In this document: positions 32,891 through 61,110 of the stretch, piece after piece | Layout: every line of letters starts with the position of its first letter | How positions within the stretch are numbered: the first letter of the stretch is position 1 | Assembly (NCBI RefSeq): GCF_988242995.1 | Contig: NZ_OZ547043.1 | DNA length: 64,000 nt | Direction: 5' to 3' (one strand) | Notes under the pieces: model-generated | Told to the model about the DNA's origin: nothing | Database searches by the model: none | The model's input: only the letters and a program-made list of their open reading frames with translations | Position numbers and translations under genes: made by a program

Positions 32891-34566
32891 CTCAATTTAC
32901 GCAAAATACCGCCATGCCTTCTTCCCTCTGGCAATACTGGCGCGGTCTTTCCGGCTGGAACTTCTATTTTCTGGTTAAGTTCGGCCTGTTGTGGGCGGGA
33001 TATCTTAACTTCCATCCGCTCCTCAATCTGGTGTTTGCCGCGTTTCTGCTGATGCCCATTCCGCGCTACAGCCTGCATCGCTTACGCCACTGGATTGCCC
33101 TGCCGATCGGCTTTGCTTTGTTCTGGCATGACACCTGGTTGCCTGGCCCGGAAAGCATAATGAGCCAGGGTTCGCAGGTGGCGGGGTTCAGTACCGATTA
33201 TTTAATCGACCTTGTCACACGCTTTATTAACTGGCAGATGATTGGGGCCATTTTTGTTTTATTAGTGGCCTGGTTATTCCTGTCACAATGGATTCGCATT
33301 ACCGTTTTTGTGGTTGCCATTCTGCTATGGCTGAACGTACTTACCCTGGCGGGACCAAGTTTCTCCTTGTGGCCAGCCGGTCAACCGACGACCACTGTAA
33401 CAACGACGGGTGGTAACGCAGCGGCAACCGTTGCGGCGACGGGTGGCGCACCGGTAGTGGGTGATATGCCCGCACAAACTGCACCGCCAACAACGGCGAA
33501 TCTTAACGCCTGGCTGAATAATTTCTATAACGCGGAGGCGAAACGTAAATCGACCTTCCCGTCTTCGCTGCCCGCTGATGCTCAGCCATTTGAACTACTG
33601 GTGATTAATATCTGTTCGCTTTCCTGGTCGGATATTGAAGCCGCCGGGTTGATGTCGCATCCGCTGTGGTCGCATTTCGATATTGAGTTCAAGAACTTTA
33701 ACTCCGCCACCTCCTACAGTGGCCCGGCGGCGATCCGTTTACTGCGCGCCAGCTGCGGGCAGACTTCGCACACTAATCTGTATCAACCGGCAAATAACGA
33801 CTGCTATCTGTTTGATAACCTGTCGAAACTGGGCTTTACCCAGCACCTGATGATGGGACATAACGGCCAGTTCGGCGGTTTTTTGAAAGAAGTTCGCGAA
33901 AATGGCGGCATGCAGAGCGAATTGATGGATCAAACAAATCTGCCGGTTATTTTGCTGGGCTTTGATGGTTCGCCGGTTTATGACGATACCGCCGTGCTTA
34001 ACCGCTGGCTGGACGTTACCGAAAAAGATAAAAACAGCCGTAGTGCCACGTTCTACAACACGCTTCCACTGCATGACGGCAACCATTATCCGGGCGTCAG
34101 CAAAACAGCGGATTACAAAGCGCGAGCGCAGAAATTCTTTGATGAGCTGGACGCCTTCTTTACTGAACTGGAGAAATCGGGTCGTAAAGTGATGGTGGTC
34201 GTGGTGCCGGAACACGGTGGCGCGCTGAAGGGCGACAGAATGCAGGTATCTGGCCTACGTGATATCCCTAGCCCGTCTATCACAGACGTCCCCGTTGGGG
34301 TGAAATTCTTCGGCATGAAGGCACCACATCAGGGGGCACCGATTGTCATCGACCAACCGAGCAGCTTCCTGGCTATCTCCGATCTGGTGGTTCGCGTTCT
34401 TGATGGCAAGATTTTCTCCGAAGACAATGTTGACTGGAAAAAACTCACCAGTGGGTTACCACAAACAGCACCGGTCTCCGAGAACTCAAATGCAGTAGTT
34501 ATTCAATACCAGGATAAACCGTACGTTCGCCTGAACGGCGGCGACTGGGTGCCTTACCCGCAATAA
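32887..34566 (+). CDS. bcsG: Cellulose phosphoethanolamine transferase BcsG, 559 aa
   Basis: Track [43 protein letters not shown]...; membrane N-terminus plus periplasmic alkaline-phosphatase-like domain. Confidence 0.94.
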
Positions 34567-34652
34567 GAACGAAAAAGGCCGCAGAGTTTCACCCCTGCGG
34601 CCTGGTCCGGGCGCAAATTGCCATTACGGCAGCCTGACGCCCGCATGACACG

Positions 34653-34760
34653 TTACTTCCGCTTATTCAGCGAGTTCACGATCAGACTGGCAAGAATGCC
34701 AGCAATGATCGGAGCCGCTAAATCATGCCAGAAGGCCATGCCCAGCTCTGCGAGCGTCAT
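34653..34760 (-). CDS. Ldr-family type I toxin, 35 aa (copy 1, divergent)
   Basis: Last 35 codons of track ORF 34653..34895: MTLAELGMAFWHDLAAPIIAGILASLIVNSLNKRK. ATG (cat on plus strand) at 34758-34760. Confidence 0.8.
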   Translation of the reverse strand: MTLAELGMAFWHDLAAPIIAGILASLIVNSLNKRK

Positions 34761-34808
34761 ATAGCCGCCTGTGTTGTAATGACAACGTTTCGCGGCTATT
34801 CTTGTATT

Positions 34809-34874
34809 GTTTGGATGCAAGAATGGCCCCCGTGGTGTTGTCAGGTGCATACCTGCAACGTGCGGGGGTTTTCT
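34809..34874 (+). ncRNA. Rdl-family antisense RNA (copy 1); coordinates approximate
   Basis: Plus-strand hairpin cccccgtggtgttgtcaggtgcatacctgcaacgtgcggggg followed by ttttctct, antisense to the ldr leader. Its 5' part differs from copy 2. Confidence 0.5.
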
Positions 34875-35135
34875 CTCTCCAGCAACCAATGCCACCAGGG
34901 ATTAAGCCCCCGCAACATTGCGCCTCACCGGAACCCTTCCGGCTTGACGCTGATTCTACGACTGTTTTTCTGTTCCGGAATCCATCACGTCTTCACTCTG
35001 TGCTGCGCATTCCGCAGAATATTATCCGCTTGCAACCGTTGCATTTTTCTTACGAAAAAGGCCGCAGAGTTTCACCCCTGCGGCCTGATCCGGGCGCAAA
35101 TTGCCATTACGGCAGCCTGACGCCCGCATGACACG

Positions 35136-35243
35136 TTACTTCCGCTTGTTCAGCCAGTTCATGATCATACTGGCAAGAATGCCAGCAATGACCGGAGCCG
35201 CTAAATCATGCCAGAAGGCCATGCCCAGTTCTGCGAGCGTCAT
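35136..35243 (-). CDS. ldrD: Ldr-family type I toxin, 35 aa (copy 2, LdrD-like)
   Basis: Last 35 codons of track ORF 35136..35378: MTLAELGMAFWHDLAAPVIAGILASMIMNWLNKRK. ATG at 35241-35243. Confidence 0.8.
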   Translation of the reverse strand: MTLAELGMAFWHDLAAPVIAGILASMIMNWLNKRK

Positions 35244-35291
35244 ATAGCCGCCTCTGTTGTAATGACAACGTTTCGCGGCTATTCTTGAGTG

Positions 35292-35357
35292 GTCTAGAGT
35301 CAAGATTAGCCCCCGTGGTGTTGTCAGGTGCATACCTGCAACGTGCGGGGGTTTTCT
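35292..35357 (+). ncRNA. rdlD: RdlD-like antisense RNA (copy 2); coordinates approximate
   Basis: ggtctagagtcaagattagcccccgtggtgttgtcaggtgcatacctgcaacgtgcgggggttttct: hairpin plus U-run, antisense to the ldr leader. Resembles RdlD as I recall it. Confidence 0.55.
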
Positions 35358-35718
35358 CTCTCCAGCGACCAATGCCACCAGGGATTAAGCCCCCGCAACA
35401 TTGCGCCTCACCGGAACCTTTCCGGCTTGCCGCTGATTCTACGACTGTTTTTTACCGTCAGCACCCGGCAATCTTCCTCATTGCGTGATGCCTTCCAGCT
35501 TAATTTCTTTATTTGCATTAGTTGCAGTTCATATCCGGGCTGACTCCAGACTGGTAGTGAAATGCGCAATTTTGTAGAATTGCGCCTCCTCGCGACCTCC
35601 CCAGTGAATCTGTTGCCTCATTTTTTACATACTGCGTATTCGACTTCTCCACCTGTTGCGCAAGAGAAACTGGGTTTATTCATTTTTGCGAGGCCGACTT
35701 CTTTCTGGACAGGACTTT

Positions 35719-36990
35719 ATGCAGCACAACACACTACCGAAACACGATCAGAAAATGCCGTTTACACGCTACGACTTCGGCTGGGTTTTATTATGCATAG
35801 GCATGGCGATTGGTGCCGGAACCGTGCTGATGCCAGTACAAATTGGCTTGAAGGGAATTTGGGTATTTATTACCGCAGCGATCATTGCTTATCCTGCCAC
35901 CTGGGTAGTGCAGGACATTTATTTAAAAACCCTTTCTGAAAGCGATTCCTGTAATGACTACACCGATATTATCAGTCATTACCTGGGGAAGAACTGGGGA
36001 ATTTTCCTCGGGGTTATCTACTTTTTGATGATTATCCACGGGATTTTTATCTACTCTCTCTCCGTGGTTTTCGACAGCGCCTCGTACCTGAAAACCTTCG
36101 GTTTAACCGATGCCGATCTTTCACAATCTCTACTTTATAAAGTCGCTATTTTCGCCGTACTGGTGGCGATTGCGTCTGGTGGTGAACGATTACTGTTTAA
36201 GATTTCCGGGCCAATGGTGGTGGTCAAAGTAGGGATTATTGTCGTGTTCGGTTTTGCGATGATCCCGCACTGGAATTTCGCCAATATAACCGCCTTCCCG
36301 CAAGCCTCCGTCTTTTTCCGCGATGTCCTGCTTACCATTCCATTTTGCTTCTTTTCTGCAGTATTTATTCAGGTACTAAACCCAATGAATATTGCCTATC
36401 GTAAACGGGAAGCGGATAAAGTACTGGCAACCCGGCTCGCGCTGCGTACCCACCGAATTAGTTATATCACGCTCATCGCGGTGATCCTGTTTTTTGCCTT
36501 TTCGTTTACCTTCTCAATTAGCCACGAAGAAGCCGTTTCTGCCTTTGAACAAAATATCTCGGCACTGGCACTGGCCGCGCAGGTGATCCCTGGGCATATC
36601 ATTCATATCACCTCTACGGTGCTGAATATCTTTGCCGTACTGACCGCATTCTTTGGCATTTATCTCGGTTTCCACGAGGCCATTAAAGGCATTATTCTCA
36701 ATCTGTTAAGCCGAATTATTGATACCAAGAAAATTAATTCACGCGTGCTGACTCTGGCGATCTGCGCTTTTATCGTCATTACGTTGACGATTTGGGTTTC
36801 GTTTCGTGTATCGGTGCTGGTGTTCTTTCAGTTGGGAAGCCCGTTATATGGCATTGTGTCGTGCCTCATTCCGTTTTTCCTGATCTATAAAGTCGCACAA
36901 CTGGAAAAACTTCGCGGATTTAAAGCCTGGCTGATTCTGCTTTACGGCATTTTGCTATGCTTGTCGCCACTGTTGAAGCTGATTGAGTAA
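35719..36990 (+). CDS. yhjV: Putative amino-acid permease (HAAAP family, SdaC/TdcC-like), 423 aa
   Basis: Track ORF 35656..36990; conserved start [34 protein letters not shown] (ATG at 35719). Confidence 0.9.
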
Positions 36991-42704: not shown

Positions 42705-43467
42705 TATTCTGCTCCAATTGTGATGTTTGTTGTTTTAACCCTTTGCAGTGGGTTGTCGCTGCCTGACCTTTTTTGTTTTTTGCCCGGTCGGGTCAACGTT
42801 ATGAGGTGGGGATGCCGTACTAATTAACATCAGTGTAACAGTGCGGATCCTCCATAAAATGCCCCTCGTGACCTACAATCTGTCAACAGAATGTGAAAAC
42901 GTCAATACAGCCAACCGGGATTTACACCAACGGTGAGAATCCACAAACAAAGATTAAAAAAACTTCAAACAGCTATTTGCAGCAGAGAAATTTGTGCTAC
43001 TCCAACATGACCAGAACAATCAGCTTAATATTTAGCAACAATTGGTGATTAAGTTTTATGCATTTAGTGAAAAAAATCTGAGGAAAAGGTGGATATCTGA
43101 GCGATTAATACCATGAACGCTAAAACGCACAGGGGAAAATGCCAGCGCCAGCCATAAGTAACGCAAAAAAAGATTTAAGCAAATATAAAAAAAGACAATG
43201 GTTTCTGTCACAAATCCGTTAATGGATAGTGAGATATGGGGCGCAAATTTGGCAGGGAAATATGTGGTGTGTTGCCGTTTAGATCGGATAAGACGGATAC
43301 GCTGTATCCCACAATGAGTGCGGTGCCGAATTTGGTCGGTGCCAGAGGATTACTCGCCACTTCGTGGCTCGCCCTGCGGGCCGTTGCTGGCGCAACGTTC
43401 TCTCGCTTCGCTCGAGTCGAACCTCCCTGCCCCCGGAGGTTCTCATCCTCTTCAGGCCGCAGAAAGC

Positions 43468-43495
43468 AAAAAAACCAGCCCGTAGGCTGGTTTTT
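43468..43495 (-). terminator. Intrinsic terminator downstream of proK
   Basis: aaaaaaccagcccgtaggctggttttt: perfect ccagcc/ggctgg stem with U-run on the proK (minus) strand. Confidence 0.7.
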
Positions 43496-43501
43496 CTAAA
43501 T

Positions 43502-43578
<77 letters not shown>

Positions 43579-54654: not shown

Positions 54655-54775
54655 ACTTTTATCCACTTTATTGCTGTTTACGGTCCTGATGACAGGACCG
54701 TTTTCCAACCGATTAATCATAAATATGAAAAATAATTGTTGCATCACCCGCCAATGCGTGGCTTAATGCACATCA

Positions 54776-54934
54776 ACGGTTTGACGTACAGACCATTAAA
54801 GCAGTGTAGTAAGGCAAGTCCCTTCAAGAGTTATCGTTGATACCCCTCGTAGTGCACATTCCTTTAACGCTTCAAAATCTGTAAAGCACGCCATATCGCC
54901 GAAAGGCACACTTAATTATTAAAGGTAATACACT
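54776..54934 (+). promoter_or_regulatory. cspA long 5' UTR (cold-box / RNA thermosensor leader)
   Basis: The leader acggtttgacgtacagaccattaaagcagtgtagtaaggcaagtcccttcaagagttatcgttgatacccctcgtagtgcacattcc... precedes the cspA ATG by about 159 nt. A -35/-10 pair (ttgcat ... gcttaat) and an AT-rich UP element lie just upstream. Confidence 0.8.
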
Positions 54935-55147
54935 ATGTCCGGTAAAATGACTGGTATCGTAAAATGGTTCAACGCTGACAAAGGCTTCGGCTTCATCACT
55001 CCTGACGATGGCTCTAAAGACGTGTTCGTACACTTCTCTGCTATCCAGAACGATGGTTACAAATCTCTGGACGAAGGTCAGAAAGTGTCCTTCACCATCG
55101 AAAGCGGCGCTAAAGGCCCGGCAGCTGGTAACGTAACCAGCCTGTAA
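54935..55147 (+). CDS. cspA: Major cold-shock protein CspA, 70 aa
   Basis: Track [73 protein letters not shown]; RNP1 motif KGFGFI. Confidence 0.97.
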
Positions 55148-55173
55148 TCTCTGCTTAAAAGCACAGAATCTAA

Positions 55174-55208
55174 GATCCCTGCCATTTGGCGGGGATTTTT
55201 TTATTTGT
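55174..55208 (+). terminator. cspA intrinsic terminator
   Basis: atccctgccatttggcggggat followed by ttttttta. Confidence 0.7.
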
Positions 55209-55334: not shown

Positions 55335-55487
55335 TTACTCTTTCAAATTGCAGGCTAAAAATGCCGCCAGCTCATAACTCCCCTGTTTAATATGCAATTC
55401 ACACAGTGAATCTCTTATCATCCAGGTGAAAAATAAAAGCGTGAAACAAATCACTATTAAAGAAAGTAATCTATATTTCTGCGGCAT
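55335..55487 (-). CDS. hokA: Hok-family type I toxin HokA, 50 aa
   Basis: Track ORF 55335..55547 (70 aa); the last 50 codons MPQKYRLLSLIVICFTLLFFTWMIRDSLCELHIKQGSYELAAFLACNLKE are the Hok toxin. The in-frame upstream extension probably covers the mok/leader region. Confidence 0.85.
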   Translation of the reverse strand: MPQKYRLLSLIVICFTLLFFTWMIRDSLCELHIKQGSYELAAFLACNLKE

Positions 55488-55766
55488 TCCCAGCCCCCTA
55501 TGTTGATTTCCAACGAGTAAGAGGCTAACCTTATGGTGTTCAGGCATAGGGTAGCCTCACTTTGATTTATAGTCAGGTGGGGCTTTTCTCTGTCTGCCTT
55601 TCGGTGAATACCTGAGACAAACAGTCTCAAGCACCCGCAGCTATTCTAGCTTAATAAGTTCGTTTCTTCTCCTTGATATAATCCTAAAAAAATCTCATAA
55701 AATTAATATATGAGACAATCTTTATTCAGCAGAAGATTATTAAAGGTTGCTCTATTATTTAGCGAT

Positions 55767-60405: not shown

Positions 60406-61110
60406 AAATGCGCCTATAAGGCTCTCTTACCAGCCGCGCCCTAACAGGCGCACACGATCTGACATTTGCATCCAACTTCGTTACTTACGGCCCGTAAACG
60501 GGCTGCCCGGATAGGGAATCGATAACTGCTCTCCCATTTTATCCTCTTCAAGCTGGTGCTTTATGTAATCCTGTATCTTCGCCGTGTTCTTACCCACTGT
60601 ATCGACGTAGTACCCTCTGCACCAGAACTCCCTGTTCCTGTATTTGAATTTCAAATCACCAAACTGCTCGTAAAGCATCAGACTGCTTTTCCCTTTCAGA
60701 TATCCCATAAAGCCGGATACGCTCATTTTGGGCGGGATCTCCACAAGCATATGGATATAATCTGCACAGCATTCAGCTTCCAGAATCCGTACGCTTTTCC
60801 ACTCACACAGCTTTCTCAAAATACTGCCTATTGCTCTACGCTTCTCTCTGTAGAACACCTGTCTTCGGTATTTTGGCGCAAAAACTATGTGATATTTACA
60901 GTTCCATCGGGTGTGCGCTAAGCTCTTTTCGTTCCCCATTGGGACCCCCTTTTGATTTCTTGTTTGACACTTGCAGTTGCCAGACCGCAAAGTGTTTTAA
61001 CAAATCAAAAGGGGTTTTAATAACTGGCTCAAAGCTGAAAGCTTTCCGGAACCCCCAGCCTAGCTGGGGGTTTTCTGTGCACAATAAAGGCCCGGTCACA
61101 TTGGACTGAC
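60405..61110 (-). mobile_element. IS200-like insertion sequence (IS200/IS605 family); boundaries approximate within about 30 bp
   Basis: Single Y1 (HuH) transposase gene with about 75 bp after the stop and about 170 bp before the start. The upstream end carries the characteristic perfect hairpin acccccagcctagctgggggtt. Total about 0.7 kb, as expected for IS200; no terminal inverted repeats, consistent with the family. Confidence 0.8.
60481..60939 (-). CDS. tnpA: IS200-family transposase TnpA (Y1 HuH transposase), 152 aa
   Basis: Track ORF 60481..60990; conserved start MGNEKSLAHTRWNCKYHIVFAPKYRRQVFY; HuH motif (HMLVEI) and catalytic Tyr region (RGYYVDTVG) present. Confidence 0.92.
   Translation of the reverse strand: MGNEKSLAHTRWNCKYHIVFAPKYRRQVFYREKRRAIGSILRKLCEWKSVRILEAECCADYIHMLVEIPPKMSVSGFMGYLKGKSSLMLYEQFGDLKFKYRNREFWCRGYYVDTVGKNTAKIQDYIKHQLEEDKMGEQLSIPYPGSPFTGRK

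Follow-up and report, generated by a model that had tools for sequence, protein, structure and literature searches.

The ldrD/rdlD module of Escherichia coli K-12 (LDR-D; Kawano et al. 2002), a type I toxin-antitoxin pair, is the closest described relative of the locus analysed here. In the accepted model of Ldr/Rdl regulation, Rdl blocks a leader open reading frame, ldrX, in a manner like that of hok/sok, a model described as unconfirmed in a review. In the Sib/Ibs family, specificity is set by two short recognition domains located in hypervariable regions, and repression is lost in a SibC mutant although it can still pair with its target over approximately 100 nt (Han et al. 2010, PMC2943612). 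In the zorO-orzO/zorP-orzP locus of EHEC, a variable stretch of 3 nt (V1), single-stranded in both RNAs, stops OrzP from repressing zorO (Wen et al. 2014, PMC3919570). For Rdl, a search of the available literature found no experiment on cross-specificity.

The window analysed here, a stretch of 64,000 nucleotides from RefSeq assembly GCF_988242995.1 (contig NZ_OZ547043.1), contains an E. coli bcsG-yhjV intergenic region, at approximately 34.5-35.5 kb, that holds two tandem, head-to-tail LDR-D units with a period of 483 bp. The bcsG gene ends at 34566 and yhjV starts near 35720, with dppF next, on the minus strand. In each unit, an ldr toxin gene on the minus strand is combined with an Rdl antisense RNA on the plus strand. 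The locus shares its position between bcsG and yhjV and its architecture with K-12 ldrD/rdlD, and Rdl copy 2 corresponds to K-12 RdlD, being identical over 64 nt to the annotated rdlD gene. It differs from the K-12 locus in carrying two units instead of one, copy 1 combining a 5' tail of type T1 with a rare toxin that lacks Trp30. The units and their elements are as follows.

34569-34969: LDR-D repeat unit 1, bcsG-proximal; gapless alignment to 35052-35452, with 20 differences over 401 nt
35052-35452: LDR-D repeat unit 2, yhjV-proximal, of the K-12 ldrD/rdlD type
34653-34760, minus strand: ldr toxin coding sequence, copy 1, 35 aa, MTLAELGMAFWHDLAAPIIAGILASLIVNSLNKRK, with I18, L26 and S30 and without the signature Trp30
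35136-35243, minus strand: ldr toxin coding sequence, copy 2, 35 aa, MTLAELGMAFWHDLAAPVIAGILASMIMNWLNKRK
34809-34874, plus strand: Rdl antisense RNA, copy 1; Rfam RF01813, 81.7 bits, model positions 1-66 of 66
35292-35357, plus strand: Rdl antisense RNA, copy 2; Rfam RF01813, 87 bits, model positions 1-66 of 66
34953-34958, minus strand: inferred -10 box of the ldr1 promoter, TAGAAT, read from the sequence
35436-35441, minus strand: copy-2 equivalent of the ldr1 -10 box, likewise read from the sequence
34576-34603, minus strand: intrinsic terminator of the ldr1 mRNA, an 11-bp stem, 8 of its pairs being GC, and then a T run
35059-35086, minus strand: copy-2 equivalent of the ldr mRNA terminator
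34774-34802, plus strand: inferred rdl1 promoter, TTGTAA, 17 nt, TATTCT, with +1 seven nt further downstream, read from the sequence
34764-34796, minus strand: stem sequestering the ldr1 Shine-Dalgarno region (AGCCGC/GCGGCU), enclosing a GUUGU/ACAAC hairpin, just upstream of the AUG

The match of both units to the Rfam rdlD and Pfam Ldr_toxin models, together with the strong intrinsic terminators of their minus-strand transcripts, identifies them as ldrD/rdlD, the known type I toxin-antitoxin module LDR-D, here in a two-copy arrangement that is common. RefSeq annotation of the same E. coli locus and comparison with K-12 agree with this identity. The gathering score of RF01813 (rdlD) is 50, and the two peptides align to positions 1-35 of 35 of Pfam PF13940 (Ldr_toxin) with 83.4 bits for copy 1 and 89.1 bits for copy 2 (cut-off, 27); neither peptide matched an NCBIfam model. 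The inferred ldr mRNA, from the TAGAAT -10 box to the terminator, measures approximately 375-377 nt. The inferred rdl promoter is the same in both copies; in a scan against the sigma-70 consensus no promoter reached the threshold, the rdl1 promoter scoring below it. Terminator-like sites with T runs are located at 34852-34866 in Rdl1 and 35335-35349 in Rdl2, with the hairpin present in the minimum free energy fold. Rdl is antisense to the ldr 5' untranslated region, where it is complementary to nt 73-138 of the leader, clear of the Shine-Dalgarno sequence and of the start codons (AUGs at 34760 for ldr1 and 35243 for ldr2).

The 20 differences between the units are strongly clustered. Nine of them fall within a single 21-nt span, a number reached in none of 20,000 permutations (permutation maximum, 8), and the clustering is not a matter of chance. 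A variable block holds nine substitutions in 22 nt, compared with six in the 108 nt of the ldr coding sequence, none in the 48 nt of the Rdl hairpin (nt 19-66) and 1-4% in other regions. The block and the elements associated with it are listed below.

34805-34826: variable block, with nine substitutions in 22 nt between the copies
34809-34826, plus strand: Rdl1 5' tail, type T1, GUUUGGAUGCAAGAAUGG, the proposed recognition element, which holds all six Rdl differences
35292-35309, plus strand: Rdl2 5' tail, type T2, GUCUAGAGUCAAGAUUAG
34796-34826, minus strand: target stem-loop of the ldr1 leader, with 5' arm CCAUUCUUG (34826-34818), 13-nt loop (34817-34805) and 3' arm CAAGAAUAG (34804-34796)
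35279-35309, minus strand: target stem-loop of the ldr2 leader, with an internal A-A mismatch in the stem

Rdl1 and Rdl2 differ by six substitutions, at positions 3, 5, 8, 9, 15 and 17, without any indel and confined to nt 1-18; three more substitutions, at 34805, 34806 and 34808, are located in the interval from the rdl -10 box to +1. The preliminary description had reported that the 5' part of the Rdl region differs between the copies while the terminator hairpin is identical. The identity of the hairpin holds, with no difference in Rdl nt 19-66, and so does the divergence of the 5' region; however, the strings quoted for the latter were out of register, that of copy 1 beginning 7 nt upstream of the Rdl start and that of copy 2 at +1, and no length difference is left once they are aligned.

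ViennaRNA predicts for Rdl an unpaired 5' tail followed by a long and very stable terminator hairpin with a 4-nt apical loop, nt 1-11 of the Rdl1 tail being mostly unpaired. On the opposite strand, the target hairpin is predicted in the minimum free energy fold of both ldr mRNAs (377 nt), with 7 contiguous base pairs in copy 1 and 5 bp, an A-A mismatch and 3 bp in copy 2. The complement of Rdl nt 1-18 comprises the 5' arm of this hairpin and ten of its 13 loop nucleotides. According to these folds, the variable block coincides with the predicted Rdl tail on the plus strand, while its minus strand supplies the loop and the 5' arm of the predicted leader hairpin. Within the Rdl target, accessibility in the ensemble of the full-length mRNA is highest for 8-mers of the loop (P = 0.55 and 0.87); when a 230-nt 5' fragment is folded instead, the predicted accessibility of the loop is far lower.

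LDR units were collected from Escherichia, Citrobacter, Salmonella, Kluyvera, the Klebsiella oxytoca group, Pseudocitrobacter and Atlantibacter, and the leader alignment comprised 59 distinct leaders from 8 genera. The stem sequestering the Shine-Dalgarno region is 98-99% paired according to the RNAalifold consensus and pair counts, with one pair changed from CG to UA in 17 sequences. Across the 59 leaders, RNAalifold did not predict the target stem unaided, probably as a result of a shift in stem register in Citrobacter- and Kluyvera-type units, and the explicitly named stem was therefore tested instead. This stem is 84% paired over the 59 leaders, with double-sided compensatory changes in three of its eight pairs, among them a UA-to-CG exchange seen in nine sequences. 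No columns of the alignment vary more than those of the loop.

In hok/sok of plasmid R1, a long structured toxin leader is combined with an antisense RNA that has a single-stranded 5' tail. The ldr units resemble that system in the proposed leader open reading frame (mok there, ldrX here) and in a predicted long-range 5'-3' pairing, and differ from it in toxin family. The similarity between ldr and hok-sok is also noted in T1TAdb. Against the Rfam sok/hok model RF01794, the two ldr leaders score 30.3 and 23.9 bits, under its gathering score of 59. As for the leader open reading frame itself, a UUG located 60 nt upstream of the ldr AUG, inside the tail target, is found again in the majority of units; its counterpart in K-12 LDR-A, -B and -C stands at -59 and opens a frame that stops at a UGA overlapping the ldr AUG. 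A scan for upstream open reading frames gave the UUG at -60 and an AUG at -90 as candidates and no universally conserved leader frame. The UUG may thus be regarded as a candidate ldrX start, though not a universal one.

A mechanism can be proposed from these elements. The ldr mRNA would be a stable transcript of approximately 375 nt encoding a 35-aa membrane toxin, with the 66-nt Rdl antisense to its leader. Pairing would begin between the Rdl tail and the leader loop and then extend into the hairpin region, and the resulting duplex would block leader translation and provide a substrate for RNase III; that Rdl represses ldr translation is inferred from work in K-12. In K-12, p19-captured RNase III products form an abundant peak of approximately 21 nt dsRNA in the rdlD/ldrD overlap, at 3,698,166-3,698,199 in old coordinates. 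With an offset between the K-12 genome versions that we take to be 1,977 bp, together with the rdlD coordinates, this cluster corresponds to approximately nt 8-41 of Rdl, so that the duplex formed in vivo would take in some of the tail as well as the hairpin's 5' arm.

Pairing energies were predicted for cognate and non-cognate combinations. For full duplexes, they are -144.6 kcal/mol for Rdl1:ldr1, -142.5 for Rdl2:ldr2, -127.6 for Rdl1:ldr2 and -117.3 for Rdl2:ldr1. For the tail alone, net of opening costs, the cognate pairs reach -17.3 kcal/mol (Rdl1:ldr1) and -16.1 kcal/mol (Rdl2:ldr2), whereas Rdl1:ldr2 reaches 0.0 and Rdl2:ldr1 has no in-register site, its best alternative lying at +10 kcal/mol. 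The asymmetry arises because three of the Rdl1-on-ldr2 mismatches are G-U wobbles while all six of the Rdl2-on-ldr1 mismatches are true ones. In the proposed mechanism, Rdl2 would find essentially no foothold on ldr1, and Rdl1 would find a weak, wobble-containing foothold on ldr2.

Every Rdl/ldr combination nevertheless retains perfect complementarity over 48 nt. With accessibility included, the shared nt 24-54 give a net energy of -27.7 kcal/mol in all four pairs, better than that of the tail alone. The cost of opening is approximately 30-34 kcal/mol in total for the shared region, compared with 8-11 kcal/mol for the tail. A purely thermodynamic argument for specificity was rejected, as equilibrium energies that include accessibility are the same for cognate and non-cognate pairs; any specificity would therefore be kinetic and limited by nucleation, and slow or dose-dependent cross-pairing through the shared 48 nt would still be possible. 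Initial contact by loop-loop kissing through the hairpin apical loops was also considered and is unlikely, the predicted loops having only 4 nt, too few to hold a kissing complex stably together. The comparison of predicted duplexes that the preliminary description had called for gave a divided answer, with the tail separating the pairs sharply and nt 24-54 not separating them. Its suggestion that the two antitoxins may not be interchangeable gains from the position of the differences in the predicted accessible tail and loop and from the tail energies, and is weakened by the equal energies of the shared region.

Because almost all that separates the two units lies in the tail/loop module, fast nucleation of each Rdl should be confined to the mRNA of its own unit. 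We incline, with some reserve, to this reading, in which recognition would occur through the predicted tail and loop, fast nucleation would be limited to the cognate mRNA and the two toxins would be controlled largely independently. The described families offer partial parallels. Ibs/Sib is likewise a multi-copy family with cis-encoded antisense RNAs of high identity, in which recognition resides in the most divergent segment, as proposed for the Rdl block. In contrast, Sib covers the whole ibs open reading frame and has two recognition domains, whereas Rdl covers the leader only and has one candidate domain; moreover, specificity is demonstrated for Sib and predicted only for Rdl. Zor/Orz is also a tandemly duplicated type I locus in which the 5' 18 nt of the small RNA pair with the toxin mRNA. 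Orz is, however, divergently encoded, unlike Rdl, and its complementarity extends over only 18-19 nt, while a non-cognate Rdl retains 48 nt of perfect complementarity. Together, the kinetic argument and these precedents favour a predicted preference of each Rdl for its cognate mRNA.

To place the two copies in the E. coli population, their sequences were compared with those of other strains, in which the locus carries from one to four LDR-D units (one in K-12). Matches of at least 99% identity to the copy-1 Rdl block (111 nt) occur in 1622 of 5406 records (30%), including O26:H11 11368 and a BL21 derivative, and such matches to the copy-2 block in 2082 records (39% of complete-genome records). 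Both tail types are old and common E. coli alleles, and not the product of a divergence of copy 1 from copy 2 in place. At least seven tail types occur among the LDR-D units extracted, and the tails look like mosaics of three sub-blocks. In a small, non-random sample of 28 distinct Escherichia LDR-D units, the block has the highest nucleotide diversity, approximately 0.19 compared with a background of approximately 0.03, and the mean pairwise difference is also highest there (4.6 per 22 nt, compared with at most 3.1 elsewhere). The block occurs as 8 discrete haplotypes, with eleven sites of diversity of at least 0.3 and many sites near 50:50. The number of haplotypes, considered as a measure of hypervariability, fails to single out the block, since the ldr terminator loop has more of them (13, shallow), and loops in general may perhaps be less constrained. 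The block stands out only by its pairwise divergence and its intermediate-frequency sites.

Where LDR-D tails differ, the toxins are often identical; O26:H11 has four units with an identical toxin and three different tails. From the sequences collected, variability and mosaic structure in the E. coli family appear to be concentrated in the tail/loop module, and the toxin peptide to be nearly constant. In a matrix of nine by nine tail types, T1 and T2 are among the most orthogonal pairs, whereas other types, such as T1 and T4, are predicted to cross-pair strongly (-27.0 and -20.8). Moreover, identical tails co-reside in some genomes (units 2 and 3 of O26:H11, and BL21-RIPL). Given such cross-pairing and co-residence, orthogonality is no strict rule.

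The toxins differ from copy 1 to copy 2 by four amino-acid changes (I18V, L26M, V28M and S30W), and both the substitutions and the peptides given in the preliminary description are correct by translation; two further changes, in codons 5 and 32, are synonymous. The copy-2 toxin differs from K-12 LdrD at F3L and V28M. Both copies have the PXXXG motif in the transmembrane segment (P17-I/V-I-A-G21) and a charged C-terminal NKRK. At position 30, copy 2 has the tryptophan and copy 1 a serine, with no Trp nearby. A tryptophan that follows the hydrophobic helix and precedes the charged C-terminus is described as a signature of the Fst/Ldr superfamily and is reported to be non-essential, as Fst of pAD1 has Val there and is toxic (Weaver 2020). 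Of the 51 distinct Ldr peptides collected, 43 have Trp30 and 8 do not, and the Klebsiella Ldr peptides are also without Trp at this position. I18 and L26 are common states in the Ldr family, and M28 of copy 2 is unique among the 51 peptides. The copy-1 coding sequence is rare: only 8 of 5333 E. coli records carry it at 99% identity or more, and these comprise the ST2747 assemblies, MEI003, JNEC-KY178 and three pig-associated records (ETEC1738, HCP5S3_I2 and LCP30S3_I5). Because the T1 tail mostly accompanies the standard peptide, the divergence of the toxin and that of the antitoxin are independent events, and the coupling between them implied by the preliminary description is not upheld; the substitutions of the copy-1 toxin, including the loss of Trp30, represent a separate, rare and lineage-specific event.

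Other readings of the variable block were weighed against cognate preference. The two Rdl RNAs may be interchangeable, the shared 48 nt and a partly matching tail being enough to repress either ldr mRNA and the tail/loop differences reflecting neutral drift in the least constrained part of the module. This is a possible but rather doubtful explanation. It would account for the identical net energy of the shared region in all pairs (-27.7 kcal/mol), for non-cognate full duplexes that still reach -117 to -128 kcal/mol, for the polymorphism of the ldr terminator loop, with its 13 haplotypes, and for the co-residence of identical tails in some genomes, and ibsA is reportedly recognised by non-cognate Sib RNAs (PMC2943612). 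However, opening the shared region would cost approximately 30-34 kcal/mol, against 8-11 for the tail, and the apical loops, with only 4 nt, are too short for stable kissing. The block consists of a few deeply diverged haplotypes at intermediate frequency, not of scattered rare variants, and in Sib/Ibs a residual complementarity of approximately 100 nt gave no repression (PMC2943612).

The remaining explanations concern expression and toxicity. The differences in the block could mainly tune expression, with changes in the discriminator and initial transcribed sequence of the rdl promoter altering the level of Rdl, and changes in leader hairpin stability or in initiation of the leader frame altering basal toxin translation. 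The three substitutions between the rdl -10 box and +1 (TGTATTG compared with TGAGTGG), the effect of positions 15 and 17 on the stem (7 bp in copy 1; 5 bp, an A-A mismatch and 3 bp in copy 2) and the recurrent UUG inside the tail target, 60 nt upstream of the ldr AUG and 7 nt after GGGGG, are all consistent with such an effect. As the main cause of the divergence it seems improbable, since four of the six changes within Rdl fall in loop or seed positions that leave the stem unaffected and the promoter hexamers and the UUG are the same in both copies; tuning of expression is, moreover, compatible with specificity, and both could hold. Copy 1 might also encode a decaying or attenuated toxin, with W30S, together with I18 and L26, lowering toxicity so that its regulation would be irrelevant. 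Such a loss would fit the presence of Trp30 in 43 of 51 distinct peptides, its description as a superfamily signature and the rarity of the coding sequence (8 of 5333 records), but we give it little credence, because none of the open reading frame, Shine-Dalgarno stem, promoter, terminator and Rdl1 is disrupted, the Pfam score greatly exceeds the cut-off, Klebsiella Ldr peptides also lack the Trp, Fst of pAD1 is toxic despite having Val in the corresponding place, and both I18 and L26 occur commonly in the family.

A wider hypothesis, which we put forward only tentatively and regard as less probable than cognate preference itself, is that the Rdl tail and ldr loop form a few discrete specificity classes, anciently maintained, built from mosaic sub-blocks and comparable to plasmid incompatibility determinants. 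Tandem LDR units with the same toxin might then be kept as independently regulated switches, with diversifying or balancing selection acting on the RNA-RNA module and not on the toxin.

As things stand, the two-unit locus is an ordinary allelic variant of a well-known module, and the part that merits follow-up is the discrete, mosaic, intermediate-frequency recognition block carried on a near-constant toxin. If the tails set specificity, the number of toxin switches under separate control in an E. coli strain would equal its number of LDR-D units, from one to four, which would bear on the retention of chromosomal type I toxin-antitoxin modules in multiple copies. Studies based on deletion or knock-down of a single rdl in multi-copy strains would then need to consider cognate specificity. 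In addition, the rule of variable recognition domains established for Sib/Ibs and Zor/Orz would extend to Ldr/Rdl, a family whose mechanism has only been modelled.

Rdl annotation was absent from the examined RefSeq (PGAP) E. coli records, namely those under matches H31-H70 and H96-H100, in which the features under the match were "none". The ldr CDSs, unlike the Rdl RNAs, are annotated in these records, and rdl features are present only in the K-12 record among the records examined. The other Rfam matches in the window, listed where they exceeded the gathering score, are as follows.

43333-43578, minus strand: RtT, adjoining a tRNA
54775-55202, plus strand: cspA thermoregulator
55485-55636, minus strand: hok/sok-type locus (RF01794, 125 bits)
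60949-61072, minus strand: STnc490

The RF01794 match indicates a second type I toxin-antitoxin module, unrelated to LDR-D and approximately 20 kb from the LDR-D units. The same sok/hok leader model matched both ldr leaders (34758-34911 and 35241-35394, both minus strand) at 30.3 and 23.9 bits, below its gathering score of 59. These sub-threshold matches are consistent with the published remark that the RNA organisation of Ldr/Rdl loci resembles that of Hok/Sok. In the predicted folds of the full-length ldr mRNAs (34570-34946 and 35053-35429, both minus strand), the 5' segment GGCGCAAU is paired with AUUUGCGCC near the 3' end, and an upstream GCGGGGG and a downstream CGGGGG compete for pairing with CCCCCGC. 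The predicted 5'-3' pairing and this competition recall hok mRNA, with its fold-back inhibition and its metastable structures.

Each ldr mRNA also contains a 25-codon ORF, which starts near the mRNA 5' end and stops within the Rdl-complementary region in both copies.

34841-34918, minus strand: ORF MLRGLNPWWHWLLERENPRTLQVCT
35324-35401, minus strand: ORF MLRGLNPWWHWLLERENPRTLQVCT

The N-terminal part of this ORF is found again in Kluyvera units (MLRGLDPWRQLLLERENPRTLFGK...). The ORF could serve as a leader ORF, or could simply reflect conservation at the RNA level.

The bcsG-yhjV locus of E. coli O26:H11 11368 (L063, NC_013361.1 4620384-4623494) carries four tandem LDR-D units, all encoding the identical Ldr peptide WP_001295224.1, with three types of Rdl tail, the middle two units sharing an identical tail. 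In E. coli BL21-RIPL (L064, NZ_CP083273.1 4492887-4495997), a cluster of LDR units, two of them LDR-B-like and two LDR-D-like, has a truncated tuf pseudogene on one side and an IS1/RHS fragment on the other, an unusual rearranged setting for LDR repeats.

Peptides other than Ldr were found behind LDR-type leaders with Rdl-like antisense RNAs in Atlantibacter (L025, L035, L036), in Kluyvera (L026, L027, L044, L041) and at the further loci L031, L007 (Pluralibacter) and L048. The 3' hairpin anchor, the Shine-Dalgarno-sequestering stem and the AUGAC start are common to these loci and the LDR leaders. The peptides fall into two size classes, one of 30 aa, such as MTFREALVIAVVTSIIGPIVVALVCHFCNI and MTFKQAFWLAVLTSIIGPIVVALIRYFFSF, and another of 46-48 aa (MDFLKAV...), and a Pfam search of them returned no meaningful matches. 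These results suggest that toxin ORFs have been exchanged behind a conserved regulatory RNA module.
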